Shown piece by piece: positions 41,208-64,000 of a stretch of DNA of 64,000 nucleotides. The position numbers were made by a program, and so were the translations under genes. The notes under the pieces were generated by a model. That model was not told the origin of the DNA, made no database searches, and worked only from the letters and a program-made list of their open reading frames with translations. Location of the stretch: contig CAWGYA010000008.1 in NCBI GenBank assembly GCA_963826715.1, positions 544,001 through 608,000 of the forward strand. The letters run 5' to 3'. How positions within the stretch are numbered: position 1 is the stretch's first letter; every line of letters starts with the position of its first letter. The DNA is from Candidatus Bathyarchaeota archaeon (GTDB lineage Archaea > Thermoproteota > Bathyarchaeia > Bathyarchaeales > Bathycorpusculaceae).

Positions 41208-41227
41208 TTAATGTGTAACGCTAAAAA

Positions 41228-44181: not shown

Positions 44182-44209
44182 TAACTATTATTGATGATAA
44201 TACAGAAGG

Positions 44210-44719: not shown

Positions 44720-44726
44720 TTTAGGT

Positions 44727-45119: not shown

Positions 45120-45145
45120 TACATATATAACTTGATAACCGCAAC

Positions 45146-45448
45146 ATGTGTGAAGGGGAACTAATTTATATGGTGCGCAAAAAGAAAACAGAGGAATATG
45201 AAGCGAAAATTAAGCAAGCCTTGATGGTATTAGGCGAGGTTTCAGAGGACACAACTACTCCAAGGAACATCCGCCGGAGCGCAAAAGACGCCGTTAACGC
45301 ATTGCAGGGAACAGAATACACGCCGGCCGTAAAAGCCTCAAACGCTGTTGCACTCCTCGATGAGATTCTACAGGACCCCAACATGCCGCCGTACACACGT
45401 GTGAAATTGTGGAACGTAATGAGTTTCATTGAAGCCATAAAAGATTAG
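45146..45448 (+). CDS. UPF0147 family protein; integration target of the element
   Basis: DTTTPRNIRR, DPNMP.YTR...W. Its last 18 nt are duplicated at 62463-62480. Confidence 0.92.
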   Translation: MCEGELIYMVRKKKTEEYEAKIKQALMVLGEVSEDTTTPRNIRRSAKDAVNALQGTEYTPAVKASNAVALLDEILQDPNMPPYTRVKLWNVMSFIEAIKD

Positions 45449-45548
45449 TATTCGAGTATGTCAGACTACTTTCTTTTCCTAAACAGCAATTAGATCAAGA
45501 CCGTTTTCAAAGCCGACTTCGAGCAGTTTGAATGCTTCTTGAAGGTTT
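45431..45548 (+). repeat. attL-like direct repeat, copy 1 (118 bp)
   Basis: GAAGCCATAAAAGATTAGT...GAATGCTTCTTGAAGGTTT. Matches 62463-62579 with 3 substitutions and a 1-nt indel. Confidence 0.95.
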
Positions 45549-46755: not shown

Positions 46756-46980
46756 TCAACTCACCTTGCATTGAATGGGGTCAGGTGCTGTTTTCTCAAC
46801 TGCTTCATAAACGGCAATATACACTCCCAACTCAGCAACAAACACCAAAGCCCTAACCGTAGGATTCACCGATGTATGCTCCCGCCGACAAGCCTCCGCC
46901 CGAGCAACAGCTAACAAAGAACCCACATCAACCGTCTTCTCGTTAGGAGAAATAACAAGAGCCTTAAGCATAGTTTTCAT
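46756..46980 (-). CDS. small hypothetical protein between replicase and integrase
   Basis: Abuts both neighbours (start overlaps the replicase stop; stop is adjacent to the int start). Confidence 0.6.
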   Translation of the reverse strand: MKTMLKALVISPNEKTVDVGSLLAVARAEACRREHTSVNPTVRALVFVAELGVYIAVYEAVEKTAPDPIQCKVS

Positions 46981-49649
46981 TTAACACCCCATCTGCCAAT
47001 TTGAGGAACCGCAAAAATTTGTCCTTCTTCAAGCAGAATTTTTACTGTTTGATGAATATCCAGACTTAGTTCCTTGCATTTCTCGGAGAGAATTGATGAA
47101 TCTATTGTGCAATTCTCATCTTTTTCTGTTAGAAGGCAATCTTTGATTTTATCAAGATTTTCTTTATTCCATGAAGAAGGGGAAATAATAGCGTCCTTAG
47201 CGTCCTTACTGTTTTTGTCGTCGGACTGTTCGGCATTGATAACATGGATGTATTGGTCGCTTTGGACGCTAACTATACTTATTCTCCTCTTGCCACTTTT
47301 AGAAGAAATTATTTCCCAGCCCAACGCTCTTAATGAGGGTGCTAGTTCATTCAGTTGTCGGGTTAATGCATGCGGTACTTTTGGCCAAGTCTTTTGACGA
47401 GGATTAATTTCAAGTGTTTTTGCATGATTCAAAAGTGTGGTATGCAACTCTGTTGGGGTTCCAATCCATTCTTTGAGTGATTTTTCAATTATTTCATTTT
47501 CTAAGTAATCAAGCAATACAGCTGCAATAGGACTTGCCAAAGCAGCCTCTTCCACTTGGCTTTTGACTTTGCTTTCATAAGCTGTTAAGAAATCTTCTGG
47601 GCTCTTACCTAATGCCTTAGCTATTGAACAACCCCATCGTGTGAAATCTGCCATTCTGAAAAGTCCCTCGGGATTGACGTTTGGATAATTCTTAATGGCT
47701 TTTACAAGGGCATCTAGGAAGCCTCCCAGAATACTCTGTTTTTTAGCATTTAACTCCGCTATAATTTGTTCTTCGGTTTTTCTCTGCTCTTTAGGAATAA
47801 ATTCAAGTGGAACTAAGAAACTGCGATCTAGTAAGTCTCCGCGTTGTGCTGCAATATTTATACCGTTTAAACCTACACATCGTTTAAAATTGTAAATTAT
47901 ATCCTCGTCGTCGGAATAGAGTTCTCGCTTAGTAAATCCACCTCCAGTGGCTGCCTTGCAGAGACTGTCGCTTGTCCAGGTTGGTATACTTGTTAGGTTA
48001 TCGTAAAACGCAAGCCAATTATGGTCAAGTTGTTGGACTCTTTCTCTTTCATCTCTTGACATGCTTAAGAGGTCTATACTCGAGGGATCAAAAATCTCCT
48101 TAATTATCCTAAATAGCCAGCTTTTTCCTGTACCCTGTGGTCCATGCAGAACTAAGATTGGATGAGGTATCAGTGGTATTAGGTAGCTTGCACAAAGGCA
48201 CATCAACCCTAACCGACTATCGTTATCGTCTTTTCGAATATTAAAAAAATCTAAAAGCTGCCATGGATCACCACCTGCAATTGGTGAGATTATTGGAAGT
48301 TGATGTCCATATCTTTTGAAAAGTATAGGTGGGTGATTTACTATTTGCCAACGGTTTGCGTCCACTTTTATTGCTTGCCATTTATCATTAACCATGTCAA
48401 TCCAGAAGCCGTCTTTGTCAGGTGCCACTCGATTATATAGAATGTATTGTGTGCCTTCAATCAGAGCTTTTCCTTGAAGAACACTCAATGCACTGTTTAT
48501 TCCTTCGGCGCTAGGTGCTTTTTGTTCTTTTTTCCACATAAGGTTAGCTAACCAAGTTTTGCATTGGCGGCTGCGTATTGGAATTGTTATGTTAGCCTCG
48601 TTTTGAATTACTCGCATGTAAGGAGTTTTGTGTTGGTCGTGGAAGAAGACAGGGTTTTGAAGGAGACAAATGTCTACTATTTTGTCAGCTTGGCTTTGGT
48701 TCCGGTTGCTTCTGTTTTCTTCTTTGGGCTTGCGGCAATCTTGACAGTTTATTAGTTTACATTCTGTGTAGCAGATGTCTAATTCTTGAAGGGTTTCACG
48801 TCTATACCTGTAGTTGTTTCCTTCAGAGGCCTTAGATATTGTATAGGTTAATCTTTGGTCTGTTTCATCTCGGTCAAAATTATGTACGGGTGAGGGTTCC
48901 CACGCTTGGTTCTCATGGAATATTTTTCTTATTTCATCGTTTGTTCTGCCCGTGAAATGTAGTTCATAAACTAAAGCTACTTTTTCATTATGCCTTAGAT
49001 GTGCCTGCTTCATTAATTTTTCAAAGCACGGTCTAACTGGCGTTGCTTCGATTTCTAAGGGGATAATATTGGTAGCTGTTGGAATTTTTGCTTTTATTAA
49101 GTCCGCTGATAGAAGGGCTTCATGAAACATTTCTTCAGCATTTTCTACGATTGTTGGATCGTTATCATTTTCTCTGGAATAGCCTTCGCTCGGTGCCATA
49201 ATGCATAAGTTGCCCTTTCCTAGAAGTTCCAAGTAGGTTCCTTTAGGCTTCCAACCATTAACAGGTTGCCTTGAATAATAGAGTAGGTGCTGTCCGTCGG
49301 ACCTTGTTTTTTCCAGTTGAGTGACTCTCAAGTTACTAATGGCGTGGAGTGTCTTTTCAAGAATCTCGGGTGTAGCGTTTTCTCCTTTAACGTCTCTATC
49401 GATAGCGCAAAAATATACTTCATCGTTACCTACAGTGATTCTTGTTCCTGTAATAATTCCAAACAAACAATAGTTTTCGATATGAAGAGCCTGAAACTCT
49501 TCAAGTGTCTGCCGTCTGGATTGCCACTGCTTCCAGGAGTTCACAACTGGTCTTTTTTTCCCGTCAGAGTCTACAATAAAAGGTACAATTCCCAAGCCTA
49601 TTTGATGATATTTCTGCGCTTCTAACAGAAGATTATTATCGTTTTCCAT
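46977..49649 (-). CDS. replication protein: bifunctional primase-polymerase + PriL-C-like domain + P-loop helicase
   Basis: KKRP...WKQWQ, GIITG, AIDRD, TRSDGQHLLY (Prim-Pol). RPCF...H.EK..L and DICYTEC (PriL-C-like). LHGPQGTGKS, FYDN, DLLDR (SF3-like). Confidence 0.85.
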   Translation of the reverse strand: MENDNNLLLEAQKYHQIGLGIVPFIVDSDGKKRPVVNSWKQWQSRRQTLEEFQALHIENYCLFGIITGTRITVGNDEVYFCAIDRDVKGENATPEILEKTLHAISNLRVTQLEKTRSDGQHLLYYSRQPVNGWKPKGTYLELLGKGNLCIMAPSEGYSRENDNDPTIVENAEEMFHEALLSADLIKAKIPTATNIIPLEIEATPVRPCFEKLMKQAHLRHNEKVALVYELHFTGRTNDEIRKIFHENQAWEPSPVHNFDRDETDQRLTYTISKASEGNNYRYRRETLQELDICYTECKLINCQDCRKPKEENRSNRNQSQADKIVDICLLQNPVFFHDQHKTPYMRVIQNEANITIPIRSRQCKTWLANLMWKKEQKAPSAEGINSALSVLQGKALIEGTQYILYNRVAPDKDGFWIDMVNDKWQAIKVDANRWQIVNHPPILFKRYGHQLPIISPIAGGDPWQLLDFFNIRKDDNDSRLGLMCLCASYLIPLIPHPILVLHGPQGTGKSWLFRIIKEIFDPSSIDLLSMSRDERERVQQLDHNWLAFYDNLTSIPTWTSDSLCKAATGGGFTKRELYSDDEDIIYNFKRCVGLNGINIAAQRGDLLDRSFLVPLEFIPKEQRKTEEQIIAELNAKKQSILGGFLDALVKAIKNYPNVNPEGLFRMADFTRWGCSIAKALGKSPEDFLTAYESKVKSQVEEAALASPIAAVLLDYLENEIIEKSLKEWIGTPTELHTTLLNHAKTLEINPRQKTWPKVPHALTRQLNELAPSLRALGWEIISSKSGKRRISIVSVQSDQYIHVINAEQSDDKNSKDAKDAIISPSSWNKENLDKIKDCLLTEKDENCTIDSSILSEKCKELSLDIHQTVKILLEEGQIFAVPQIGRWGVK

Positions 49650-49682
49650 TTTTGTGGCTTAACTCCATAGCTTTTTTGATAA

Positions 49683-49919
49683 TCAGGCTGTCTCGTGGTT
49701 TGTCCCTATGCTTGCACTTTGTTTTCTGCTTTTCAAGTCAAGTCTTATTAAATCTCTGAGATAGTCGGCTAGGTTGATGTGTGAGCTTTCAGGTAAGGCG
49801 TTTTTTACTTCTTGAAACATTGACTTGCTTATCCGGGTCGAAACTGCAACTGTTTGCTCTTTTTCTGTTATCAAACGTTTACACCCAATTATACCTGAAT
49901 ACAAATATATGAGCACCAA
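49683..49919 (-). CDS. ribbon-helix-helix (CopG-like) regulator
   Basis: TVAVSTRISKSMFQEV...NLADYLRDLIR; directly upstream of the replicase. Confidence 0.8.
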   Translation of the reverse strand: MVLIYLYSGIIGCKRLITEKEQTVAVSTRISKSMFQEVKNALPESSHINLADYLRDLIRLDLKSRKQSASIGTNHETA

Positions 49920-49949
49920 GAAGAGAATTACCCCTGTAGGTGCTCATTA

Positions 49950-51521
49950 ATGGATTCTAAGACAGCGGAGATAAGCGATAGGCTCAGCCAATATAAGTCC
50001 GCAGAAGACTTAAGCGAGAAAGATAGACAGCGCTATCTCTTAATCCTAAAGTTCATTGGAAAACATGGGATTAAAGGTACATATACCGCTGGTTTGAGAA
50101 AGAACTATGGTTTGAGTAGTCGCTACATAAGAGCTGTTGAAATCTGGTTGAAGGACCATGATTGGATCAAACCAGTCGGAAAAGAACACCATAAAAAAGT
50201 ATGTTTGACCGATAAAGGTCAAGATGCCCTAAGCATTCTTGTACGATATTGCTATTCTCCTTTGACGGAGCCTAAACTGAAGATAGACTTCCCCCTTGGG
50301 GAGGAACAAACAATAGTCGCCTCAATCCCTGACAAGGATGTTTTATCGATCGAGAAGTTAGCGATATTATCGCGGCCTGATGTTAGGGAAGGTATAGTTA
50401 AGATAGCTCATAGCTTGATAGAAAATAATCACAAAAATATCACTCTCAAAATAGAAATACCTCCATTGCATGCTTCCCAATTAACCAGTTTCATAAAACT
50501 AATCGAGCTAGTTTATTGGCTGGTTCTGCAAAAGAGCGATTATAAGGGACTACTAGCTTACGAGCCTATTTCAGAAAATACAGAAAACCAAGAGGTGTAC
50601 ACATCATTTTGGAAAATGTACTTGGAGAAGCATCTCAGCATTAAAGACAATGAAATCTACAGGTCGAGTATCTGGATTTTTGACGGAGTGCCTGATGGTA
50701 GGAAAGAGTCGTTTCAACAGCCTCTTCATGATTTCTTCGTAGAAGAATTGGGCTTTGAGGAAAACAGTTTTAGTTTCTTCCTTGACCTCCTAAGTGAGCC
50801 TCCGATAAGAAAGTGGATAGAGGACAGATTAGCTAAAGATCCCGATTGGTTTATGCCCCAATATTTTTGGAAAAATCCGGGTTATTGGGATAGGTATTTC
50901 TTAGGTTTTGATCTTCCATCTACAACCTTGAACATACTTCAACCATTGATGAAAGATTTGGGTGAATTTGAGTATCTCGAAATTCCGAGAAAGGGAACAA
51001 TTTTTGGTAGTGATAATGCAGATCAATCCGTTCTCGATAAGGCGGTGGCTATTGTGAGGGAAAAAAATGGGGTATGCGTTCAGATTGAAAAACTTCCAGC
51101 TTTTCGAGTCGAGTTTGTAGATCGAATAAAGCCACCTATCTGGCACGAGTTTTCTCTACAAGAAATTACTAACGAGTATTATCAGCTTGAGTTCAATCTT
51201 AGATGCATGACAACAGCAGGTAATTATATGCTTGAGTCAACTATTGATCACCTTCTTAAAATGGATCTAAATTCTGACCTCTTTTATAGAAATTGGCGGG
51301 TGCTATACGAAGTATTTTCAAAAGACCACAGAGATAAAATCCCCCAAAGCAGACTTAAAGATATAATTGAGTTAATTCAAAAAGCCTATGTGAAGTACAT
51401 TCCGGAAGGTAAGCCCACCGTAGATTTGATAGCTGTATTGAATAATTATAAAGTCACCTTGGATCCATCTAAACTCTTACAAGACATAGACAATGGAAAA
51501 TACGATATTAACATAGTTTAA
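49950..51521 (+). CDS. hypothetical protein with an N-terminal wHTH
   Basis: LLILKFIGK...LSSRYI....WL..HDWI......VCLTDKG..AL fits a MarR/ArsR-type wing; remainder unrecognised. Confidence 0.65.
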   Translation: MDSKTAEISDRLSQYKSAEDLSEKDRQRYLLILKFIGKHGIKGTYTAGLRKNYGLSSRYIRAVEIWLKDHDWIKPVGKEHHKKVCLTDKGQDALSILVRYCYSPLTEPKLKIDFPLGEEQTIVASIPDKDVLSIEKLAILSRPDVREGIVKIAHSLIENNHKNITLKIEIPPLHASQLTSFIKLIELVYWLVLQKSDYKGLLAYEPISENTENQEVYTSFWKMYLEKHLSIKDNEIYRSSIWIFDGVPDGRKESFQQPLHDFFVEELGFEENSFSFFLDLLSEPPIRKWIEDRLAKDPDWFMPQYFWKNPGYWDRYFLGFDLPSTTLNILQPLMKDLGEFEYLEIPRKGTIFGSDNADQSVLDKAVAIVREKNGVCVQIEKLPAFRVEFVDRIKPPIWHEFSLQEITNEYYQLEFNLRCMTTAGNYMLESTIDHLLKMDLNSDLFYRNWRVLYEVFSKDHRDKIPQSRLKDIIELIQKAYVKYIPEGKPTVDLIAVLNNYKVTLDPSKLLQDIDNGKYDINIV

Positions 51522-51686
51522 CGAGCGCTTTTTTCCTTGTTTACGGAAAACCCCGTTGTAACTGTCTATTGTTAGCTGCAAAACTTGGCGCAGGGCAATC
51601 AAGTGCTTGGTCCTCCTCAATAGTACAGCCATTGCCTCCATTAGAGACTCTCAAATTTACCCATGTTGGATTGCAGGCGGCAATGC

Positions 51687-54287
51687 CTACAATTCTTTCT
51701 GATCATAACCTAAAATCACTAAGTCTGAGAACTCGGTGGGCTCTAACTTATCGAACTCTTTTTGGGGAATTTTTAGGTACTGCCAGTTATCATTGGTTAA
51801 ATTAGTTGCGTATTCACACCATAACTTCGCTGCCCTGTCCTTATGCTGTACGTCTTGGTCTTCGCGGCCCTTTGTTTCTATAAGGTAGTGATCGCCGTTT
51901 TCTAAAATTGTGATAAAATCGGGTTCATAATACCGAAGGTTTGCTGCCGAATCCGTGTACTCTATTGCAAAGCCGAACCTGCTGGGTAATTTAGCGAATT
52001 TGGTAGTTTCCTTGGACGATTGGAGGAACTTGGCAAATTGCAGTTCAAACGCGTTGTCACAGGGCACACGGTTCAAGACGCATTTGGATGCTCTTAGCGT
52101 CTGCCTTGAAAACGCAAAAGGCGCCATCTCTGACAGCTTTCTAGGCGGACCAACAAGTTCAGGTATCTTTTCTTCAATTATTACAGTCTGCAACGCCTTT
52201 ACAAAAGTCTGAACAGTTACGTATTGGCAAATGTTGCTGCTGATTGCTCTAATTATCGAGGGGTCATCTAGGTTTACTTTCCCTCCAAAAGCTTGCTCTT
52301 CTAGGAACTGCTTGATTTTTGGGACAAGATAAGCGAATTGGGAAGGCAATTTGAGTCTATTGGAGATTTCCTTTGCATAATAAGATATTACTTCTTGGGC
52401 GGTTTGCGCCTGAGGTATCTCATATTGACGCTCTATGAGTTTCTGAAGAGATAGAAAATCGTATCCTTCATACCGGAAAGTTTCTGTTTCTTCTTTGATT
52501 TCTTTTTTGGGGATTTTTGGCGCTTTAAAGGCTTTAACGTCTAGGGCTTGGATATGTTCCGAGAGCGATTTTTTGCGAACAAGAATTGGAGTAAGTAGGG
52601 GGACTTCTATGTCCATGTCAATTTTTTCGGGGTCAACCATTATTGTGACAATCTCCAGTTTTTCTTTTCCCAACTCAAAAGTTCCAAACTTGAGCCCTTC
52701 TATATTTTCCAAGGCTTCAACGAAACTGATGAAAGACTTGTTGCCGATAACGTCCAGCCTTTCGATATATTCCCCAGGCAGATCACGGAACATTAAACGT
52801 AGCCCTCGCCCTACGGTTTGTTCTGGGAGAATTTTAGCTTTTGAAGAGTAGGGTCTAAGACCGACTACTACGGTAACATTCTGTACATCCCAACCTTCCC
52901 GAAGCATAAGAACACTTACAATCGCGTTTACCGGGCTGGTTTCATAGTCAACTTCTCGGGAAGCCTGCCTTGCTACTTCCAGATCCTTTTTTGATACCTC
53001 GCCTTTTTTATCGGTGTGAATAATTAAGAGCTTGTTTTCTCCAAAGTATTCGGGGTAACGTTTTTGGAGGTAATCCCCGACATCATCTGCGTCGGAAGTG
53101 TTATTCATCATAACAAAAAGAATTGGTTTCTTCTTCAGGGGTTTTAGCTGCTCCCGGTATTCCGCCCATCTTTCGACACCCGCCGTTAAATAAGCTCGGT
53201 ATTTTGTACTGGCAATATTGGAACGCGCTTCAGTTATGCCAGAAGCTATACCTTTCAATGGGCGCTTAACTATTCCATCTTCTATTGCCCGCTTAAGAGG
53301 ATAATCGTACACTGTCCATGAAAATATTTCGCCACTGCTAAATCGTGGTGTCGCTGTAAAATCAAGTTGACCTTCAACTCCACCGGTTACCTTACTGTTC
53401 AAGCTTCTGATAATGTCATTCCATTTGAGGTCTTCATCATGTGTGTGATGGGCTTCATCGTTTAAAACTAAAATGGGGGCGCCTCTTTTTATTAAACGGG
53501 ACGTAAATCCTTCGACTGATTCTGCATCGGGTTTGGGTTTAGAACCAAGGACATCCGTCATCTCTTTTGGTTCATCGTTTTCTTGTTCCCGTTCATAGAA
53601 TTGTTGAATGTTTGTTAAATAAAATGCCCCCTCAGACTGGGCTCTTTCTCCTTCACCGCGTACGTAACATTCAAAATCCCAGCTATTTAGGAACTGGGGT
53701 GGTATAACGGGGTCGGCACGAAAAATTCGACCACCAGCAAAGTCTGACCGTAGCCGCTCAAAAACTATAACGTTTGGTGCAATAAGCAGAAAAGTCTTTG
53801 AATACCCCAACGCCCCTTCCAGTATTGCGTTGAAGTATTGCCATGCAATAGCTAGAGACATTACTTTTGTCTTACCGCTTCCAGTTGCCATTTTAAAACA
53901 GTATCTTAAGAAATCATCATATTGCAACAAGTTTAGGTTTTTTGGTTTCAACGCGAATCTTTGAAGCAATTCCTTATGACTTTTTATTTTGGCAACTTCG
54001 AACAAGTAGACAAGTGTTTCCATTGCTTCACGTTGAGCTGTATGGTAAGCAAAAGGTTTACCGTTTGGCAGCCTGTGGTCAGAGTGAAACCAGTAATTTA
54101 GAAGGGTTTTTGTAGTTTCAGTGCACCCCTCGGGTCTATTATAGTTGCTTTCAACCCATTCCTTGATTGCTTGCCTTATTGCAGGAACACATGGACCAGT
54201 TTCAACACTATGAGCAACAATTTTCAATGAACCATTTGTGGAGGCAAGGCTGTACTGCTTGCGATCCAGCTTTTTTAATTTCTTCAT
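51687..54287 (-). CDS. res: Type III restriction endonuclease Res subunit (SF2 helicase + PD-(D/E)xK nuclease)
   Basis: MATGSGKT, NDEAHH, FTATP, LREGWDV, EQTVGRGLR, YEPDF...LIETKG; intact ORF. Confidence 0.92.
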   Translation of the reverse strand: MKKLKKLDRKQYSLASTNGSLKIVAHSVETGPCVPAIRQAIKEWVESNYNRPEGCTETTKTLLNYWFHSDHRLPNGKPFAYHTAQREAMETLVYLFEVAKIKSHKELLQRFALKPKNLNLLQYDDFLRYCFKMATGSGKTKVMSLAIAWQYFNAILEGALGYSKTFLLIAPNVIVFERLRSDFAGGRIFRADPVIPPQFLNSWDFECYVRGEGERAQSEGAFYLTNIQQFYEREQENDEPKEMTDVLGSKPKPDAESVEGFTSRLIKRGAPILVLNDEAHHTHDEDLKWNDIIRSLNSKVTGGVEGQLDFTATPRFSSGEIFSWTVYDYPLKRAIEDGIVKRPLKGIASGITEARSNIASTKYRAYLTAGVERWAEYREQLKPLKKKPILFVMMNNTSDADDVGDYLQKRYPEYFGENKLLIIHTDKKGEVSKKDLEVARQASREVDYETSPVNAIVSVLMLREGWDVQNVTVVVGLRPYSSKAKILPEQTVGRGLRLMFRDLPGEYIERLDVIGNKSFISFVEALENIEGLKFGTFELGKEKLEIVTIMVDPEKIDMDIEVPLLTPILVRKKSLSEHIQALDVKAFKAPKIPKKEIKEETETFRYEGYDFLSLQKLIERQYEIPQAQTAQEVISYYAKEISNRLKLPSQFAYLVPKIKQFLEEQAFGGKVNLDDPSIIRAISSNICQYVTVQTFVKALQTVIIEEKIPELVGPPRKLSEMAPFAFSRQTLRASKCVLNRVPCDNAFELQFAKFLQSSKETTKFAKLPSRFGFAIEYTDSAANLRYYEPDFITILENGDHYLIETKGREDQDVQHKDRAAKLWCEYATNLTNDNWQYLKIPQKEFDKLEPTEFSDLVILGYDQKEL

Positions 54288-56237
54288 CGAACGGTCACCA
54301 TTAGCAGTTTTGTTGTATCATTTCCCAGAAGGTCCACTACCTTGACAACAACACGGTATTCTCCAGGTTCAGTGTAAGTCTTGGACGCTTCAGTTGTTAA
54401 CCTGGGGTTTTCTCTTGTACGGTATTCTTGCCATTCATTATGGAAAGTATCATCTTTATTGTCCCAATCAATAGCCCAGTAATCAACCCACTGAGACCAA
54501 TGCTTAATCTCCTTTTGAACTTCGGCAGGGACATCATCAGCAGGAATTACAAAGTCATTGATTTTAACTGAAACTTTTTTACCTGTGGTCTTGAGGGCGA
54601 CATCTAAAGATGCAAGCTCAAAGAACTTAACATCACCTTGCTCAACGGCTTTCTTGTCGAGCATCTCTCGTGGAATACGTAGGAAATGAATATCAACATT
54701 AGCTTGAGCTGCTTGTTGTCTTGCAAGCTCATTTAGTTCAAATGCAAAATCCCAACCTAAAATGTCAATACCGTTTGTTTTGGGTGCTTCGTTGCCCGCG
54801 CCTATTGAACGCTTAAACTCAGCAACTATTTGCTCTACGTCCAAAGGTGAGATTGGCGAATAGACAGAACCAACATGAACTGAGTATAAATTTTTTGAAG
54901 TGAAGATATAAGTAAAAGTTTAGTGGTTAGGTGGAATATAATTAAAGAATGAAACTAATGTAAGAGGTAATTATAGTCTTGGCTTCATCTAAGAACTCAG
55001 CGGCTTGCGAAGACTGAGATAGTACTTATACAGGTTCTGTATAATGAACGGTCTTACGTTGTTTACATCTGAAATAGCTTTCTAGTAGTATGGATAGCAA
55101 ACGGAATAAGGTCAAGAGTAATATATAGTATTTCTAATGTCTGAGCAACGCAGCAGTAGTAACACTGACACAAAAACAATCTAAAATAAGGTAGCTTTCA
55201 TTAGACGAAGTATTGATTATGCTTATAGTAAAGTTTCAGGTTTCTGGGTAGAATAACGCAGTCTTTATTTAGCTTGAGAGTTTATTGAGTAAATATCATA
55301 TCATATCTAGTGAACTATAGCAAGGCTCTTAGCTTAAAGAAAGTAGAGGTATAGTTTAAGCTGAGGCAATTAGATTAAGAGTAAATGAATATTTGCTCTT
55401 CTAATTTTAACATTTTTTCTTTTGTAAATAGATAGGCTCTTGTTAATACATGAAATTCATATACAGGGATAAGATTAGATGGCGGATTAAAGTTATCTAA
55501 TCTGAATAGGAGCGAGTTTTAGTTAACATGGTTAAAATGTGACTTTTTGTAGCTCTCTTTATATGGTACTTTTGGAGCATTGAATGTGTAATTTTTACTT
55601 TTTGAATAAAAAAATATTCTGTTTGTGACTTTGTTGAATCTTTTAGCATCTGTATGGAAGTTGAAACGTTTTTAAATAATTTCGTTTAGAAAATTTTCAC
55701 GGTTAAAAATCTCGTTTATAACTACTTTTATTTCTGGTCTTATATGGGAATCTAAGTGAACGTATATGTTTTTATTTTCATGTAACAACTAGTGCAACAA
55801 AACAGCGGTTTCATAGAACTATTGAAGATATGAATAGAGATTTTGCGTTTATATATCTCTATACGCTTTTTGTTCAATAATACTTGGTTCTTTGTCGAAT
55901 GTTGTGGTTTCTTCTTTATCTCTTCCTTCATAATCAGGAATGCTTGCGACTAACGAAAAATCTCAAGAGTTGCAAAAGGTGGGTCAATATAAATTAGGTT
56001 AACTTTCTCTACAAATTCTGGTAACGGATTAGGCAGAACATATTTTTTGTCTCTTTATATTAGTCGGTTTCTCTATTCTGTATTTCCTAGTTTGGTTAGG
56101 AATATTTATATGGATTTTTGGCGTTGTTGGGTTGATTCGTTTAGTGTTTCTATTGTTTGTAAGAGGATCGCTATTTATAGGGTTTTTTTTTTGTTTCCGT
56201 TTTTGTCGTATTTTTTGTCTCAGTCTAACTTAACTAA
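54284..56237 (-). pseudogene. mod: Type III Mod adenine methyltransferase; 5' ~1.4 kb heavily mutated, 3' 560 bp intact
   Basis: Manual minus-strand translation recovers NRLI*RDKKYVLP..PEF..KVNLIYIDPPFAT (DPPF 55974-55985), KEPSIIEQKAYRD, IYVHLD, ENFLNEII*KR, Y.TQKPE.LL, LILDCFCVSVTT (degenerate FxGxG, 55161-55175), FAIHTTRK, PFIIQNL, VHVGSV. This joins the intact 54284-54844 ORF. At least 15 in-frame stops and several 1-nt indels. Confidence 0.92.
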
Positions 56238-56363
56238 GGATACACCGCTAAGTTAATCAGCACTTGATTTATTTAAAACTATTAATTAATGGCTCATTTT
56301 TTTCTAGCCTTAAATTATCGAGCACTATGTAATCCTGTGCCAGCTTGTTAATGAGAGTTGAAA

Positions 56364-56847
56364 TCAATTTTGAAGTGTAGCTGGGACATACTGCATGGAA
56401 ACGGTTATTCGCTTTCGGCTAAGACTTCCTCTTATTTCATTGTTTATCCTTGAGTTATCTCTTCCCTTGCTTGCGTGTCCAAATCGGGTTATTTTCCAGT
56501 TTTCCATGTTTCCCCGTAATGATCTGAGGGTTACTTGTTAGGATGAAGAAAGGCATTTTTGTTTGGGAAGAGTAAAGTTCAGCGATAAAGTTTAGGAGTC
56601 GTTTTCCAACGCCGATTCCTTGATAATCTGGCAGCACAACTAAGCGGCTGACACGATAATATTTTGCTTTCATTCTTACGCATGCAACAGCTATGAACGC
56701 AATGGGCTTGTCTTGATAGACTGCGGTGTAGCATCGGACTCCTGCACCAAGACTACCGTTTAGATAGTGATATTGCCGAAACATCTGCCAAAGGGAATTG
56801 CCGCACCGATAGATTTGGAGTTCAACGGGCGGCCGACTTCTTTTTTT
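56364..56847 (-). pseudogene. GNAT/Mom-like acetyltransferase (frameshifted near 56518)
   Basis: W.MFRQYHYL, RVSRLVVLPDYQGIGVG, TSNP. Another frame continues RGNMENWKITRFG...SRKRITVSMQY to a stop at 56364. Confidence 0.8.
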
Positions 56848-57441
56848 CGGCTAAACTCCATCGTGTCAGTGCAGAATACCCAATCGGGATCAAGCCAATC
56901 AACAACATCATAATGGCAGGTTACGGCAATGAACTTCTTTTTAGATCGTCGAACAGCTTTGCTAATGGCAAAAGCGCTCACTTTGGCTATTTCCCTATCG
57001 ACAACACTTGTGAACTCATCAAAAACTATCAGAGGCTTATCTAAGCAGAGTGCTCGGGCAATGTCAACACGCATCTTTTCACCTTGACTAAGGCAATCAT
57101 AACTTTTAAGCCAATCGGGTGGAGAAGCAAACCCTACGCTGCAAAGAGTTTTAGTGATTTCTCCTGTTTCAAGCTCTTCGGGAAAATCATCAAGAACGCA
57201 CTTGATGCGAATACTCAAAGCCTCTGATGTAGGCGTCAGGGAAAAGCTGTTTAGCTATGCTTGTTTTGCCTGAACCACTGCGACCAACAATAACACCAAC
57301 TTGCCAATCATTATCTTCTATGGGTAAGGAGCCTTTGAAATGCTTCTCCAACTTGACTTCAGATAGCGTATAGCTGCCAACAACGCTTTGAGACCTGAAA
57401 CTGTCTGCTTGATCCCACTTTCTTACAATGTCAAAATCCGT
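56760..57441 (-). pseudogene. soluble phage-type ABC ATPase (frameshifted near 57203)
   Basis: Walker A IVGRSGSGKT (57261-57285) in an upstream frame missing from the ORF track; LSQGEKMR, DEFTSVVDR, VTCHYDV..WL.PDW in ORF 56760-57218. Confidence 0.82.
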
Positions 57442-57993
57442 AGCTTATACCCCTCCGATTTTAGCTTCTCAAAAATGCTTTTCTGATTAGCTTCATCTTT
57501 GCATTCAATGATTATCTCGTAGGTCTCAGGAATAGAGAGCGAAAACTCGCGTTCATCTAAATCCTCGGGCAGCTTCTCACCGATTGATTCAAGAAGCGCC
57601 TTTAAATCCTCTTTTTCGCCCGGCTGTATTATGCGAATGTACTCAGCGCTATCAAGCTCACTTGTTGTGTTTGCCCTTGAGCTTGTTTAGGATTTGCCTA
57701 AGCATCCTTCTATCAACATCAGTGACAGATAAACGAAGAACGGGAGCATAGAACTCGCTGTGTTGCTTGCAAATTTCACTGCGCTGCTCGCCATCAACAA
57801 AAACGCCGTCTTTATTGGTTATTATCGGATATGCCCAACCGTATTTTTGGAGACTTCTCCAGATTTGCTCTTGCTGCTTGAGGGTTGTGCGGTTAGGGTT
57901 GTTTTGATCTACTGTTAAAAGACGAATGTCTTCTAAGAGGGGCATGTAGGCTTCTGGGACTTTAAGGGTTATTTTCTTTTCCAAGTAAATCAC
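57423..57993 (-). pseudogene. ParB/Srx N-terminal domain protein (frameshifted near 57660)
   Basis: NNPN, SLQKYGWAYPI, VDGEQR, LNKLKG. After a +1 shift it continues ELDSAEY...YEIIIECKDEANQK..FEKL..EGYKLRILTL*. Confidence 0.8.
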
Positions 57994-58019
57994 TCAGTTT
58001 TTGTTTTTCATTAACGTAG

Positions 58020-58445
58020 TTAGGATAATAGCTCATCAATTAACACCTCGCTTTTGGCAAGCTCATTGGTCAACTCTGAGTGCCGCTTGTATGTATCCTG
58101 TTTCTGCTTCAAGGTTTCTAAACCAAGCAGAGCTAAGAAGCGATCAGTGATGTCTACCATGCGAGAGAGATAAAGGGGTTTTTGGGTTTCGCTTGCAGTT
58201 TGAAAGTGAAGGCTCGCCTGCCGATAGAAAAAATCATAACGGTTAACAACCATAAGACGCGCATGGTCAAAGTCAAAGAGCTGAGTTAAGACGGGTTGCC
58301 AAGTATTGCGGTTTTCTGCATCATAATAGATATTTCACTCTGAAGTTTGATATTTTTCGCTAAGAAACTTCACAATCTCACAGAGGGAAAAGCCTTTAGC
58401 TTCGAGCTTTAAGAATTCGAGGCGTCTTTCAAGCACATCATTCAC
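58020..58445 (-). pseudogene. HTH protein, terminase-small-subunit-like, with one in-frame TGA
   Basis: GTG start overlaps the upstream stop; VLERRLEFLKLEAKGFSLCEIVKFLSEKYQTSE*NIYYD, in frame with ORF 58020-58253; TGA at 58335-58337. The TerS label is inferred from the HTH and gene context. Confidence 0.55.
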
Positions 58446-59164
58446 GCTAAATCCTCCAAAATTGAAACCCCGACTTCAAAATCGCTGTACTCAGTGGTAC
58501 GCCGCAGGATATCACCTTCAAGCTTGACTGATCTTCGTTGCTGGTCAGAGAGAAAATAATAGGGGTCCTCAAAAACCGCAACATGATACTTGCGACAAAT
58601 CTTGAAGTAGGCCTCCACTATCTCAAAAATGTCAGCATCATGCAGAACCGATTGGAAGGACCTTTTGCCGGGGGCTTTGTTCCAGTTGTAGGTTAGATGC
58701 CAATAGAAGCGGAGGCAGACTTTCTCATAATCGCTGGCTTGAGCCTGCAAAACAGCAATCTTTCCGTAGATTACCTCTAATTTTATCATTAGCTGAAAAA
58801 ACAGCTTCTTTTTTGGGTCATCTTTAGCTAAAGCCATATTGATTTGTACTGAATCTTCGGGCATTTCAGTCCATACCCGCCCCAACTGCTCTGCTTCCTG
58901 TCGTGTCTGGGGATAGTTCTCCAGGAGGTACTTGCGGGTTTTAGCGTAGCTTATCAGTATCTGTGTTTCAGCACCCGACATTAAAGAGGTATCACTGCCA
59001 CATGCATCCAAGGTTTCCGGAAAAAGCTGCTGCAAGGTAACGTTTTCTGGAACGATGCCCTGTTGTTTGAGTTTTTCCAGCACTTCAGGGGAATAGATTG
59101 TTGGTTCTGCTTTTTCCCTATCTGGGTTGTATTGTCTCACTTTTTCTTTGAAGTCTTCAAACAT
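58442..59164 (-). CDS. hypothetical protein
   Basis: 240-aa intact ORF heading the HTH-ParB-ABC-GNAT string. Confidence 0.7.
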   Translation of the reverse strand: MFEDFKEKVRQYNPDREKAEPTIYSPEVLEKLKQQGIVPENVTLQQLFPETLDACGSDTSLMSGAETQILISYAKTRKYLLENYPQTRQEAEQLGRVWTEMPEDSVQINMALAKDDPKKKLFFQLMIKLEVIYGKIAVLQAQASDYEKVCLRFYWHLTYNWNKAPGKRSFQSVLHDADIFEIVEAYFKICRKYHVAVFEDPYYFLSDQQRRSVKLEGDILRRTTEYSDFEVGVSILEDLA

Positions 59165-59344
59165 GCCTTAGCTCGAATCCATCTGCAGACTCCCACACCC
59201 TGGAGAAAAGACAACAAAGCGAGTTAGCTCTTAAGACACCACAAAACAAGACAACGATTCTTTAATTATATCGGCAACAAATAAAACTTACGCCAAGTTA
59301 ATTCCTTTACCGCAAGTAATAATACGCTTACTTTATTCTATAGA

Positions 59345-59884
59345 GTGCTTATGAAATCATTGGGTGCCTACTTTAAGTCGGAAACATTCGATATTATGGC
59401 TCTTTTTTTTACAATCGTTACCCTTCTTTCTTTTTCAGTTGTCAGTCTTTATGCATTGTGGGCAGGTCCAATAGACATAATATTGCCATTAAAGATCACC
59501 TTGATTGCCTTTCTCATAATTTTGTATGTGAAACTTATTTTTTCTTTAATAACATCTGTCCGAAGCCGCGATTTAATGGAAATTCTACTCTCAGTTGTTT
59601 TTTTTATTTTACCGCCTTTTATTTTATTTTCTTTAAGCTCTTTTGTTCTTCAGTTTGTATATGAAAATGTAATAATCATAAACCTTGAAAATGTTTTGAT
59701 TGAAAATAAATTGATTTTGACAGCAGGATTAATTCTGATTTTCGGTTCTCTACTAAAAAATATTCTATATTTCCAATCACTAATCAAAGAAAAGTTGTTT
59801 GTAGTAGAAGAATGGAAAACAGATTGGGCCTTATTTGTGGATAAGGTAAAAACCCGATTAAATTACAAACAGAAAGAACCTTGA
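59345..59884 (+). CDS. four-TM membrane protein of unknown function
   Basis: Four long hydrophobic segments; AT-rich. Confidence 0.65.
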   Translation: MLMKSLGAYFKSETFDIMALFFTIVTLLSFSVVSLYALWAGPIDIILPLKITLIAFLIILYVKLIFSLITSVRSRDLMEILLSVVFFILPPFILFSLSSFVLQFVYENVIIINLENVLIENKLILTAGLILIFGSLLKNILYFQSLIKEKLFVVEEWKTDWALFVDKVKTRLNYKQKEP

Positions 59885-59899
59885 GGGCAAGCCTTTCTC

Positions 59900-61933
59900 T
59901 TACACGTCGTTGTATAGCGATAATATGGCGGCCAAACGATACTTCAGGGTTTTGTTATCATTTTTTCTTGTCATAGCATTTACCAGAACATTTGGTTCAA
60001 TTTTTACGCAAATACCTTGACCGAGTGCTTCGTCTATTTTATCGGCATCTTCAATTTGAAATGCCCTGATAAATGGAAAAGCTTCCTTCGCAATAGTGAA
60101 CTCTTTGAGAAGGAACAAATACTTTAGGATCGCTTCCTTTTTCTCTGAATCTGAAAAAACAATTTTTGGATCTACTTGTTTGGCAAGTGTGGTTAGTTTT
60201 TTTATTTCAGCTATGAGCGCTGACTTAGAAGTAGGCTTGTTCTTTGAACCTGGACCAAATACAAAGTAGACTAATAGCATTCGTGTAAGATAATTTGGAT
60301 TGAGTTTATATTTTTCAGCCAAATAGGTCCAAACGATTTTACAATAATAATCCCAATCGCTAAAGAATCCAAAATAGAAGTCAAATGCATCAGCGAACGA
60401 TTCCCATAAAAGTTCAAACGAATCTTCCTGGAAAAATTCTTTTTTTCCTGTTTTAAGCATGGCTTCTCTTTGTTCCTCCATTCGCCGATAGATTTCACCG
60501 TTAGTTTGTTCTAATCTATTAAACGCTTCATGACCAACTTCGTGACCGCTGCCCCACCATTCCTCAGGTTTCATTTTTGTGTTGTTTGGCATGTTTATAA
60601 TGCCACCTTCAACCCAATAGAATTTATGTGCATACCCAAATACGCTACATCCAGTCCATGTTACACCAAAGGTTTTCAAATAGTAATTGACTAATGCTTC
60701 GTGTGACAAGAGAATTTTTAGGCTACCACCATATGATTCAAGGTTGAGATTTTTCAAACCCAACAAATTTGGAATTTGAATCCCAGAACAGCGTTGCTGA
60801 AAAATGAGGCGAAGACTATCAATTACAGTGTCATATAATTCCATTTGTTCATGATAAGCTTCTTTGTCTACTTTAATTACGGAAGAGGCAGCTTCATATA
60901 TTTCCAATAATTCCGAAAAGAAGGGAGTTAAGTCTTTTAACAAATATTTTGCAAAAGGATCTGTAGCAAGAGCTAGAAAAACATTATAATAATACCCAAA
61001 GTCATCCAGCATTTCAGGGGTTTTTGCGAGACACTTAGTAATCTTATCATCGGGTGTCGTTCCGGTCCATGTGATACTCGATAACCTACTAGCGGTATCA
61101 GAACTATGCCTAATTATGGTACTTGTAGAGTATATTGAAAAACGTTCGTTTTCAGATCTGATTTTCAATAACAGTTCAATTAGCTGTTTTAATGGAAGGT
61201 CGAATCTTGCAGTTACGTCATGAAAGCCAAACGTACTTGAAACATCTTTTCCCCCGTTGGTTCTAAGTTCTTCAAGTATTTCTTTTTCAGACCCTCCAGC
61301 CAAACTAACAAGTAATAATGCCTCGACGTTTTCTTTTGAATCCAATTGACCTGCTTTGATTTTGTTGTAGCTTACGCACGGTATGGTTGTTATATCCAAA
61401 AGAGGTAACTTTAGTTTTTCAATATTACTTTTAATTTCTGTAACAGCCTTGCTCACCTCATTAAAGCTTTCGCATGGAACCATGCAGACTATTTCCTCTA
61501 AACCCAATCCCCCAAAAACAAAAATGGGCAAGGTCATTGATTTGGATAGATAATTTGTAATTATCTGTTCAGTCTCTGTCCTATTTTCTTTTATTCCGTC
61601 CCAATCAAATCGCACACAACAGACACCCATAACAGCGGTGTTCAATGGCAATACTTTCTCTTGTGTTCCTTTTGGAACCCATTTGTACCCACAAATAGTA
61701 TTTCTATCTATAATGAATGGAAGAGGGTTTTTTCTGAGTCGGTTAATAAGGTGAAACTCGGTATTTTCCTCTATAATTACTATATCATATCTGCCTAAAC
61801 CCTTAAATAAGGTGGATTGTGGGCTAAATTTCGCGATACGGTCGAAAAGTTCGCGTTCTTTGCCCGGAACTGTCTGCAGTAACTTTATGGTTAAAACTTT
61901 GTCGCCTAAGAAACAGGCATCAATTAGTTCCAC
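59900..61933 (-). CDS. protein with three Lrp/AsnC (RAM)-like repeats and an HExxH metallopeptidase-like domain
   Basis: LFKGLGRYDIVI, VFGGLGLEEIVC, SSTFGFHDVTA repeats; GHEVGHE followed by ESFADAF. Confidence 0.6.
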   Translation of the reverse strand: MELIDACFLGDKVLTIKLLQTVPGKERELFDRIAKFSPQSTLFKGLGRYDIVIIEENTEFHLINRLRKNPLPFIIDRNTICGYKWVPKGTQEKVLPLNTAVMGVCCVRFDWDGIKENRTETEQIITNYLSKSMTLPIFVFGGLGLEEIVCMVPCESFNEVSKAVTEIKSNIEKLKLPLLDITTIPCVSYNKIKAGQLDSKENVEALLLVSLAGGSEKEILEELRTNGGKDVSSTFGFHDVTARFDLPLKQLIELLLKIRSENERFSIYSTSTIIRHSSDTASRLSSITWTGTTPDDKITKCLAKTPEMLDDFGYYYNVFLALATDPFAKYLLKDLTPFFSELLEIYEAASSVIKVDKEAYHEQMELYDTVIDSLRLIFQQRCSGIQIPNLLGLKNLNLESYGGSLKILLSHEALVNYYLKTFGVTWTGCSVFGYAHKFYWVEGGIINMPNNTKMKPEEWWGSGHEVGHEAFNRLEQTNGEIYRRMEEQREAMLKTGKKEFFQEDSFELLWESFADAFDFYFGFFSDWDYYCKIVWTYLAEKYKLNPNYLTRMLLVYFVFGPGSKNKPTSKSALIAEIKKLTTLAKQVDPKIVFSDSEKKEAILKYLFLLKEFTIAKEAFPFIRAFQIEDADKIDEALGQGICVKIEPNVLVNAMTRKNDNKTLKYRLAAILSLYNDV

Positions 61934-61964
61934 GGAAGCCCCTCGACGTAATTACCCTAGGTAC

Positions 61965-62171
61965 TTACTCTGCCAAAGCCTTATCTAATCCCTTAAGCGT
62001 GTTTCCGTAACCCATTTTCATCAATGCTTTTTCTGCGCGTTCAACGTTAAATTCTTTTCTGGGTACAACGGCATAGCTACGTCTAAATTCCTTTCGCAGG
62101 AGCGCTCTTTTGCAAGTTACTTTGAGTTTTTGGACTTTGTAAATGTCTAACGCCATTTTTTCACGCGCCAC
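61965..62171 (-). CDS. small basic protein upstream of the HExxH gene
   Basis: 68 aa, Lys/Arg-rich, 31 bp upstream of the 677-aa gene, with an upstream TTTTATA. Confidence 0.55.
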   Translation of the reverse strand: MAREKMALDIYKVQKLKVTCKRALLRKEFRRSYAVVPRKEFNVERAEKALMKMGYGNTLKGLDKALAE

Positions 62172-62462
62172 TTTTTTTTCAATTCACTATATTAATTTGT
62201 TTGTCTATAAAAGGTTTACATATTTAACAAAGTTGTTCAAAGAACAAAAGGTTTTCGGTACACAAATTTTAGAGAGAAAATTACTTGAATGAACTTTTAC
62301 GAATTGTATTTTTGGGAAGACGAAACCAATATGAGTCAACACAATGCGACCTTTATACAGATGGGATATTAAAGTCTATTTTATTCTAAATAGTTATTAT
62401 CAAATTAGGGCGTCAATCTAAAAAAGGGGTTATGCGGGAGATTTTGCCATTTTAACCTTATA

Positions 62463-62579
62463 GAAGCCATAAAAGATTAGTTTCGAGTATGTCAGACTAC
62501 TTTCTTTTCCTAAACAGCAATTAGATCAAGACCGTTTTTAAAGCCTACTTCGAGCAGTTTGAATGCTTCTTGCAGGTTT
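62463..62579 (+). repeat. attR-like direct repeat, copy 2 (117 bp), including a relic integrase 3' end
   Basis: Near-identical to 45431-45548. Minus strand encodes VENLQEAFKLLEVGFK and, in another frame, LLFRKRK*. Confidence 0.95.
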
Positions 62580-62868
62580 TCTACATTGTTTAGTTTAGAC
62601 AACTTAGCAATAGACAATTTGAAGAATAATTTATCTAAAGATAGCACAAAACAAGACAACAAGTAACTTGTACACATGATAAGAAGCAAAATAATGGCTT
62701 ATCGAGAGGTTTGCTGGGGCTCTGGACCAAACTTTAGGAGAAAAGATTTCAAATGCAAACACGATGAACTATGGCATTTTCACCGTAAACCAGAGTCCTC
62801 TCAGCCCTAAACTCTTTTCCAATTCTTTTAAACTATAATAAAAAAAAGAAAGATTGGTTTTGACCGTT

Positions 62869-64000
62869 CTAAGGTCGTTTTCTCAGTAGCAGCAGCGTCA
62901 GTAGAGCAAATCCTATTACTATTACAACAATTATCCCAGCAACGGCAGGAACAAAGTACGTCTCCGATAGCGATTCAGGTTGAGATGTTGGCTCTGTGGT
63001 TGGTTCAGGAGCTTCGTTGACTACAAAAGCTGTCTGTGCATAGGATGGATAGTATGATTTTGATCCTTCAAATGAAGCTATGACCGTGTATTTTCCGGGT
63101 ATGTCAGGTGTCCATTCAAGGTTATAGCAGCCAGTAGCATCGCTAATAGCAGTGCCAATATTGCGGTAGTTTCCGTTGGCATCCATGACGTCAATAGTAA
63201 CCGAAACACCAACAGTGTTCATAGGAAGTTCAAATTGTTTGTAGACATGCAGCATCCATTCACTTTGGCTCTCATCAGAAACAGCAGGAACACCAGTAGG
63301 GAAACGCATAGTCAAGGCAATGTCGTTAGTGCCGGGAGATACATCTGTAACAGTACCACGTATCATAAGTGAGGAACCAGACGGAACCCCTACATCGGGT
63401 GCGTTGACGGTAAGAGCGCTTGGACCTTTACCAACAGCGTAAACGCGTTGATCATAAGTATCCATAGTCACAAATACGCTATCACCGATAATTCCGCGTC
63501 CGCCCCAGCGAGTTTGTCGGAATAAGCCATCAGCAGTCCATATTTCTTCTCCAGTTGTTGCATTTAGACAGATAAACGGTGCACCACGAGGTCTAGGATT
63601 AATAGGTGAGTGCTCAGTATGGCCAAGATAGATTTTGTCGTCAGTGATAAACAATGGTTTTAGCCACCAAGTATCTTGGAACAAATAATCAGTGTATTTC
63701 TGTTTAGCTTCGTATTTCCAAAGTAACTCTCCTGTTTTAACATCAAAGCAATATGCGATTCCGCCAACGCTTGCGGTATATAGTTTACCATAAGCTATGC
63801 AACGAACATCTGAAGCTGAGTCGTCAACTGAGTCTAAGTAATGGGTCGGTTCAGAGGGGCCCCAAAGGAACTTGCCTGTCGTCAGATCGAATCCAAAGTG
63901 TTCTCTAGTCTCTTTTACCAGGAATACTGCAGCGTAGTCTTCTTGACTCCAAGCCATCCAACCGGCGCCAAAGCCGCTTATCGTTACTAGATCGTCCTCC
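62869..64000 (-). CDS. PQQ-type beta-propeller surface protein with a C-terminal membrane anchor; 5' end outside the window
   Basis: Repeated D..TG..LW blades, GTVTD.SPGT, VPAVSDES..EWM..VY.Q, Pro/Thr linker, TM + RKRP. The frame stays open to position 64000. Confidence 0.88.
   Translation of the reverse strand, partial: EDDLVTISGFGAGWMAWSQEDYAAVFLVKETREHFGFDLTTGKFLWGPSEPTHYLDSVDDSASDVRCIAYGKLYTASVGGIAYCFDVKTGELLWKYEAKQKYTDYLFQDTWWLKPLFITDDKIYLGHTEHSPINPRPRGAPFICLNATTGEEIWTADGLFRQTRWGGRGIIGDSVFVTMDTYDQRVYAVGKGPSALTVNAPDVGVPSGSSLMIRGTVTDVSPGTNDIALTMRFPTGVPAVSDESQSEWMLHVYKQFELPMNTVGVSVTIDVMDANGNYRNIGTAISDATGCYNLEWTPDIPGKYTVIASFEGSKSYYPSYAQTAFVVNEAPEPTTEPTSQPESLSETYFVPAVAGIIVVIVIGFALLTLLLLRKRP

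Follow-up and report, generated by a model that had tools for sequence, protein, structure and literature searches.

Dense, strand-specific loss of guanine from the 5' part of a Type III mod gene in a Candidatus Bathyarchaeota genome

A Type III restriction-modification mod gene in the genome of a Candidatus Bathyarchaeota archaeon (assembly GCA_963826715.1, contig CAWGYA010000008.1) has lost about half of the guanines (G) on its coding strand over its first 1.4 kb, while the rest of the gene and the adjoining res gene are intact. The gene lies in a stretch of 64,000 nucleotides (nt), referred to here as the window (G000:C8:544001-608000), within a genome of 2.64 Mb in eight contigs that is 96% complete. 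We tentatively favor the explanation that one or two bursts of hypermutation, directed at G and confined to one strand, destroyed a functional mod.

A guanine-depleted tract in a Type III mod gene

The mod gene occupies 54284-56237 on the minus strand and is followed on the same strand by res (51687-54287), whose start overlaps the stop codon of mod. An open reading frame (ORF; 54284-54844, minus strand) remains only in the final 186 codons of mod, and 54845-56237 holds no long ORF. When read through with X at the stops, the tract still matched PF01555 (N6_N4_Mtase) with E = 3.1e-9, and a custom frameshift-aware protein-to-DNA alignment placed it colinear with full-length Mod, the alignments to two Mod proteins, P0048 and P0122, spanning from the first residue to the stop codon. 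Thus, the hidden gene is a Type III mod, as the initial annotation had proposed from the letters alone. With many stop codons and six to seven frame breaks, the tract leaves no ORF for an active Mod, and the gene is a pseudogene as sequenced; its start codon reads TTA, where TTG is expected. Searching the longer proteins with the intact C-terminus as query returned at least 120 Mod proteins, most of them about 655 aa and many named Candidatus Bathyarchaeia in the source records. P0048 is the closest to the tract over the variable middle part among the Mod matches listed. The features of the locus are as follows.

54833-56237, minus strand: G-depleted tract, the 5' 1,405 nt of the Type III mod pseudogene, from the start codon to the last G-loss codon.
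55516-56237, minus strand: 5' sub-tract, in which lost G became almost only A, delimited by the conserved-site spectrum and the change point.
54833-55515, minus strand: 3' sub-tract, in which lost G became mostly T and sometimes A or C; of the six codons that are one base short, five lie here, as does the complex indel.
56162-56189, minus strand: C-change patch, with about six C>A and two C>T over eight consecutive differing codons.
54284-54832, minus strand: undamaged 3' end of mod, inside the 186-aa ORF.
51687-54287, minus strand: intact res, 866 aa (PF04851, 3.5e-16; PF19778; PADLOC REase_III, 1.6e-28).

The state of the gene before the damage is known at the protein level from P0122, and for this reason the case is unusually clean. 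P0122 is an intact Mod of 653 aa (PADLOC MTase_III, 4.3e-103) encoded on a 16,960-nt contig of another public assembly, and an exact look-up showed it to be the one other member of the 90% cluster of the 186-aa product. On the 3' side of 54833, all 182 aligned codons are the same as in P0122. Inside 56237-54833, 464 codons could be aligned, of which 360 are identical and 104 differ. The agreement resumes in the other genes that could be compared. Two res pieces of the sister contig (P0124-P0125) are identical to the window res at 462 of 462 and 405 of 407 residues, which, together with the PF04851 and PF19778 matches, confirms the earlier statement that the neighboring res had escaped. A primase-polymerase-like gene, which is in three pieces on the sister contig (P0151-P0153), is identical to window positions 46977-49649 at 404/404, 218/222 and 223/225 residues, and a 677-aa gene of the window (59900-61933) corresponds to a 545-aa product there (P0158; 533/545 identical). 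The few differences elsewhere on the sister contig are of mixed type or lie at frame breaks. Judged by these comparisons, the window and the sister contig are very close relatives, and the tract is a heavily changed island in otherwise matching sequence. Because the mod codons and res residues outside the tract match so closely, the changes came as a burst and not by drift.

The base composition of the minus strand over 54845-56237 shows a deficit of G (11.8% vs 21.7% in the whole window), with C unchanged (19.2% vs 20.7%); the share of A goes up to 44% over 55541-56237, and that of T to 36% over 54845-55540. For a test at conserved sites, we built a codon alignment of 68 distinct homologous coding sequences (CDS) and took the sites at which at least 90% of them share one base. 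These CDS came from a metagenome scan that returned 80 loci, 75 of which had an uninterrupted CDS of 600-720 codons, 68 of them distinct. The tract kept only 51 of 110 conserved G, compared with 65 of 66 in the intact 3' part of the gene (Fisher P = 8e-15). Conserved A was kept at 99/100 sites in the tract and 59/61 in the intact part, and conserved T at 118/121 and 63/63, so that A and T together were kept at 217 of the 221 conserved sites in the tract. The small difference for C (51/59 vs 30/32) was not significant (P = 0.48).

Comparison with P0122 gave the same picture. Changes of G alone suffice to explain 88 of the 104 differing codons; with C, T or A in place of G, the test accounts for 13, 5 and 3 codons, respectively. 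In all, 110 changes of G were inferred, 48 to A, 52 to T and 10 to C. At codon positions 1 and 2, 221 ancestral G could be inferred, of which 125 were kept and 96 lost. Some 43-55% of G were lost, and a change occurs about every 9-12 nt. The strand-specific G loss described in the initial annotation was therefore borne out, and alignment with the closest intact Mod yielded a substitution spectrum that is biased to G rather than unbiased.

The loss of G also extends to synonymous positions. In the 5' half, only 3 of 41 unchanged K, E and Q codons end in G, compared with 73 of 226 in res and the intact part of mod (P = 6e-4), and the four-fold sites carry 50% A in the 5' half and 58% T in the 3' half. 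Since synonymous G was lost too, the process was blind to coding, and no selection shaped its outcome.

The spectrum rests on the protein P0122 and the 68 more distant CDS, with synonymous changes judged by codon usage only, because DNA of the intact allele was not found in the genome, its relatives, the viral contigs or the metagenome scan. A 2,017-nt query matched only itself in the genome, which therefore holds no DNA paralogue of the tract, and no DNA match to the mod locus was found in the 60 relatives searched. Among 120 genomes of the genus, this one included, the best protein match outside it is 74% identical (in G085). Seven loci on viral contigs reach at most 65% identity over the full length. 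For the first 470 residues of P0122, the next closest protein is 82% identical. The contigs of P0122 and P0048 were not among the loci returned by the metagenome scan.

Anatomy, boundaries and surroundings of the tract

The base that replaced G changes within the tract. Conserved G in the tract was lost to A at 31 sites, to T at 21 and to C at 7. In the 5' half, 25 losses gave 23 A, 1 T and 1 C, and in the 3' half, 34 losses gave 20 T, 8 A and 6 C. The best change point between A and T replacement lies at about 55515, with 29 A and 5 T upstream and 11 A and 43 T downstream (Fisher 2e-9), and it divides the tract into two patches of about 720 and 680 nt. An A-then-T switch had already been seen by the initial annotation, and these counts uphold it. 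The 3' patch is heavily damaged close to its end: of nine conserved G sites in 54901-55000, only one is still G, and the five conserved G positions between 54899 and 54886 all have T. Downstream of 54880, G is kept save at 54862 (T) and 54835. The end of the tract had been put at 54845; with G-loss codons also at 54862 and 54835, we move it to 54833.

Apart from substitutions, six codons are one base short (near 55967, 55371, 55225, 55151, 55077 and 55021), and a complex indel lies at 54881-54884. In four of the six short codons (aa 91 G, 290 K, 339 E and 364 A), the residual bases, as we read the alignment, would fit a G-containing codon minus one G.

Both neighbors of a G influenced its loss. 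By 5' neighbor, the loss was 71% after G, 61% after C, 35% after T and 25% after A; by 3' neighbor, it was 74% before G, 39% before C, 30% before T and 37% before A (chi-square P = 1e-6 and 4e-5, respectively), and no single-sided motif emerged. The wider 5-mer context added nothing beyond the trinucleotide: pairs of identical 5-mers were discordant in 52 of 137 cases (P = 0.41), as the trinucleotide context predicts, and the outcome at a given G was therefore stochastic. The losses were clustered along the tract (84 runs vs 105 expected, P = 0.002). We also tested whether the replacement base was copied from the nearest unmutated neighbor, and it was not.

The C-change patch at 56162-56189 holds eight of the 16 differing codons that a G-only change cannot explain. 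It has the opposite strand polarity, and the stretch would be C-rich on the coding strand. We offer no explanation for it.

The 5' boundary of the tract is sharp. Neither the upstream spacer (56238-56365, 128 nt; 22 G and 20 C) nor the next 155 nt above it (34 G and 29 C) is depleted. One promoter-like feature was found in the spacer.

56270-56277, minus strand: TATA-like box TTTAAATA, a pattern match only, with 32 nt from its last base to the mod start codon.

With the usual archaeal TATA spacing, transcription of mod would start about 10 nt before the start codon. As far as the spacing of G allows the 5' end to be placed, the tract appears to begin at the start of the transcript, and it would affect the non-template strand. 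The 3' boundary falls inside the gene, and no feature was found there. No direct or inverted repeats of note flank the tract, and no Rfam families were found in 44000-64000. A sigma-70-type promoter scan stayed at shuffle level, with a model that does not cover archaea. We also considered the tract as the end of an integrated element and rejected this, as element-like genes continue on both sides.

The surroundings of mod look like a mobile element, judging from an integrase, a primase-polymerase/helicase-like protein and a ParB-like fragment.

46977-49649, minus strand: primase-polymerase/helicase-like protein, 890 aa (PHROG DNA primase, 1.1e-10 over residues 8-155).
45490-46755, minus strand: tyrosine recombinase/integrase (PF00589, 1.6e-19).

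The 890-aa protein also gave weak matches, DUF5906 and VapE-like, neither of which reaches the Pfam cut-off, and proteins of 523, 677, 240 and 179 aa had no match in Pfam, NCBIfam, PADLOC or PHROGs. Directly upstream of mod (56366-57330, minus strand) lies an ABC-type ATPase with a GNAT acetyltransferase end (phrog_11143). This gene is split over several frames, with breaks near 57220, 56837 and 56517; many of its homologues are on record only as 145-aa pieces, and P0133 represents the fused form. The possibility that the damage reached this gene was rejected, as G is not depleted in 56238-56520, a judgment made without a near-identical GNAT allele for comparison. Further upstream (57658-57993, minus strand), a 111-aa ORF matches a ParB-like N-terminal domain commonly found joined to DNA methyltransferases of phages (phrog_620, phrog_498); as it is not followed by a methylase domain, the ORF may be what is left of another methylase gene. 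Positions 39888-41866, some 13 kb away from the tract, hold a weakly dGTP triphosphohydrolase-like HD-domain protein and, next to it, a thymidylate kinase gene. Some genes on the sister contig are broken, reflecting either an element that decays differently in each lineage or indel errors in that contig. Elsewhere in the genome, head-to-tail duplications occur inside contigs at G000:C8:309561-311146 (793 nt, 100%) and C8:59165-60725 (781 nt, 99.7%); both may be real or assembly artefacts.

Possible origins of the tract

Taken together, the routes by which the tract could have arisen in vivo come out as slightly more likely than not, and the G-directed hypermutation that we place first, tentatively, is one of them. 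In this scheme, the coding (non-template) strand would have been single-stranded from about the transcription start over some 1.4 kb, as an R-loop or a long single-strand gap, and its exposed guanines, chiefly those in G runs, would have been damaged so as to become non-instructive. Guanine oxidation and N7/O6 alkylation prefer GG. An error-prone polymerase would then have inserted T opposite the damaged guanines of the first ~720 nt, which yields G>A, and mostly A opposite those of the next ~680 nt, which yields G>T; sometimes G would have been inserted or a base skipped, giving G>C and one-base deletions, and replication would have fixed the changes. The two patches could reflect two events, or one event finished by two polymerases. 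The single-stranded state, the nature of the lesion and the polymerase are what we infer here; the specificity for G and for one strand, the burst character, the blindness to coding and the tract boundaries are shown by the data. The genome has one Y-family polymerase gene, so a candidate for the error-prone polymerase is available. Type III Res acts only together with Mod, and the loss of Mod would disarm Res as well; the allele would be viable because Res is inactive without Mod.

Strand-coordinated mutation clusters have been ascribed to transient single-stranded DNA lesions that are fixed by lesion bypass, as the accessible parts of PMC6786661 and PMC4728370 describe. The initial annotation had likewise proposed a mutagenic event on single-stranded DNA. 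The burst-like pattern, without amino-acid differences outside the tract and with synonymous sites changed, supports this part of the proposal; cytosine deamination, which it had offered as a cause, covers only the G>A half and not G>T, G>C or the deletions.

Several observations weigh against the hypermutation we favor. The tract sequence may be that of a single molecule, and the truncated 186-aa product is on record from this one contig only. To our knowledge, the density of the damage has no precedent and far exceeds that of the clusters attributed to damage in single-stranded DNA. The clean switch from G>A to G>T does not follow from any one kind of lesion. The assembly looks long-read based, as one contig measures 1.29 Mb and a perfect tandem duplication of 793 nt is resolved within a contig, and this technology has a known strand-specific G-to-A error mode. 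In addition, no second example was found.

The search for recurrence ranked ORF-free stretches of the genome by skew, as plain G/C composition was not discriminating; a period-3 score was dropped, the known tract falling outside its 30 highest-scoring listed stretches. Of 12 stretches fetched, the Pfam scan covered eight (L099-L106), each G-poor, free of ORFs and read in the three frames of its G-poor strand, and left out L107-L110; the tract was run alongside as the positive control. None of the eight holds a hidden Pfam gene, the only matches being intact flanking genes. Other mod loci are likewise without a similar tract: 75 of the 80 metagenome loci are uninterrupted, the other five have 0-1 stops, and the seven viral loci have no stops in the matched parts. 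The earlier suggestion that other tracts with the same G-loss skew might exist thus found no example among the eight genome stretches and the mod loci examined.

Some loci met in this search deserve mention in their own right. Three ORF-free stretches, G000:C8:6335-6783 (L101), C7:246851-247201 (L109) and C2:111678-112220 (L103), are stretches in which one base makes up only 7-8% of one strand and A or T more than 42%; L101 and L103 gave no hidden Pfam gene on the G-poor strand. On the viral contig L096 (6260-9650), a mod homologue is in two segments about 1.4 kb apart, covering residues 1-125 and then 123-653, which suggests that it carries an insertion inside the gene.

The second explanation is a technical one, which we regard as a serious possibility, though short of probable: mod would be intact and the consensus wrong, either because dense modification of one strand was misread by a long-read basecaller or because a few poor or damaged molecules were left unpolished. 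Besides the apparent long-read origin of the assembly, it is in line with this that neither allele is on record from the Logan source, that the sister contig reads mod intact, and that the tract is unique in the genome as far as scanned. The accessible part of PMC11610603 reports that nanopore R10.4.1 reads and assemblies show strand-specific G-to-A and C-to-T errors at modified sites that survive polishing, and that of bioRxiv 10.64898/2026.01.14.699587 that nanopore modification error can exceed 50% alternative base at some motif positions. The former error mode lends some support to misread modified bases, and so counts against a mutational origin. However, the published nanopore error, so far as these parts of the reports describe it, is sparse and motif-bound, whereas the tract has roughly every second G changed along 1.4 kb, without 5-mer determinism. 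The 5' half of the tract fits the G-to-A and C-to-T pattern and the 3' half, with its G>T, does not; G>T, G>C and the 28-nt patch of C loss fall outside the error mode given in that part of PMC11610603. A raw noisy read is also a poor match for the tract, in which A and T are nearly untouched (217/221) and only about seven indels occur in 1.4 kb, judging by the usual error profiles of such reads. Moreover, the flanks agree with the independent sister contig (182/182 mod codons; 462/462 and 405/407 res residues), and the tract starts at the start codon or predicted transcription start, which an instrument error has no reason to respect.

The other in-vivo routes, namely a deaminase and synthesis from a starved pool or an imported strand, are unlikely even when added together. 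Cytosine deamination of a single-stranded template (plus) strand in the manner of kataegis or APOBEC enzymes, with either replication (C>T) or excision of uracil and lesion bypass as the next step, would account for the strong strand coordination and for a 5' half that is almost purely C>T on the plus strand. The preference for C next to C, which is GG on the minus strand, recalls the CC preference of APOBEC3G. The initial annotation had pointed to deaminase genes, and a search with CDA-fold profiles, the deaminase family covered, did find one gene (C8:704838-705200); it is generic, as the same profiles match 12 of 14 control genomes too. Also against this route, the 3' half is mostly C>A on the plus strand and contains deletions, and a transcription bubble or R-loop exposes the coding strand, not the template. 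According to the accessible part of PMC11230362, the processing of uracil or abasic sites results in C>T and C>G. We consider this route very unlikely.

Equally improbable, in our view, is error-prone resynthesis of a strand patch of about 1.4 kb under a severe shortage of dCTP or dGTP, by a repair or non-proofreading enzyme such as the primase-polymerase of the element, or the recombination of a damaged imported single strand. Here A, T, C and deletion at G would all be expected from misinsertion or skipping at one template base, both boundaries are sharp, and a primase-polymerase-like gene lies in the same element; an HD-domain dGTPase-like gene is present as well (39888-41207), with matches far below the curated cut-offs. 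Against this stand the absence of a PF00078 reverse transcriptase from the 96%-complete genome and the lack of any reason for a pool shortage to act on a single 1.4-kb patch. The replacement base was not copied from a neighbor, and the switch from A to T needs an extra assumption.

Slow pseudogene decay under biased mutation pressure, in keeping with a plainly non-functional gene and an AT-rich tract, is refuted because the sister allele is identical around the tract and the tract alone is heavily changed, with no amino-acid difference over 182 mod codons and about 867 res residues (462/462 and 405/407), conserved A and T kept at 217 of 221 sites and both boundaries sharp.

Beyond this one gene, it is possible, though doubtful, that the tract represents an archaeal process that strips G in vivo from the non-template strand of a transcribed gene, from the transcription start over some 1.4 kb in patches of about 700 nt, and silences a restriction-modification gene of a mobile element in one step, or else a dense strand-specific hypermodification of G that sequencers misread. 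If the tract is real, it is the densest strand-coordinated mutation cluster known to us in a prokaryote, and is aimed at guanine rather than cytosine. It would mean that a gene can be destroyed in a single event with its neighbors untouched, and a restriction system be disarmed thereby, and it would point to long single-stranded intermediates or a new G-directed activity in uncultured archaea. If it is misread modified DNA, the chromosome would have a locally hypermodified stretch anchored to a transcript, likewise a novelty. If it is simply an artefact, it serves as a useful warning that a public record can contain a 1.4-kb block at about 10% error in otherwise exact sequence.

Comparison with known systems

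No prokaryotic case of dense strand-specific G loss was found in the literature, searched at the level of titles and the starts of abstracts. Among the systems to which the tract can be compared, diversity-generating retroelements also change one specific base at about half of the positions within a bounded stretch. However, they are adenine-specific, work from a template repeat with a reverse transcriptase and leave the frame open, whereas in the tract conserved A is kept at 99 of 100 sites, the frame is broken, and neither a PF00078 enzyme nor a second copy was found in the genome. Repeat-induced point mutation (RIP) of fungi likewise silences a gene-sized stretch by dense point mutation with many stops, but it needs duplicated sequence and produces only C>T and G>A in CpA context; the tract has no second copy, half of its changes are transversions, and of its 110 inferred G changes, 52 went to T and 10 to C. 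Somatic hypermutation of immunoglobulin genes resembles the tract in that it sets in close to the transcription start and extends over 1-2 kb of the gene. It is driven by AID, affects both strands, is far less dense and diversifies its target, whereas the tract is destructive.

Modification errors of nanopore sequencing are, like the tract, strand-specific, with G-to-A and C-to-T changes that survive polishing; in the part of PMC11610603 accessible here, they lie at scattered motif sites and not in a contiguous block, and G>T is not in their pattern.

Clusters formed on damaged single-stranded DNA, including kataegis in yeast and cancer, share with the tract a coordinated strand and defined bounds. 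Kataegis clusters, as the accessible parts of the reports have it, alter cytosines, whereas the tract concerns coding-strand G in an archaeal host, with a G>A and a G>T half. A strand-coordinated change of one base, as in APOBEC-type kataegis, is present in the tract; C>T and C>G in a fixed 5' context are not. As generally described, kataegis clusters are also far sparser. Retroviral G-to-A hypermutation, caused by APOBEC3G or by low dCTP, turns much G on one strand to A with a preference for GG and converts TGG to stop codons, as in the tract, but it needs reverse transcription, for which no PF00078 enzyme was found here, and gives neither a G>T half nor deletions. Taken together, the tract does not fit the definition of APOBEC-type kataegis, RIP or diversity-generating retroelements, and it appears to work most like the clusters on damaged single-stranded DNA and retroviral G-to-A hypermutation.

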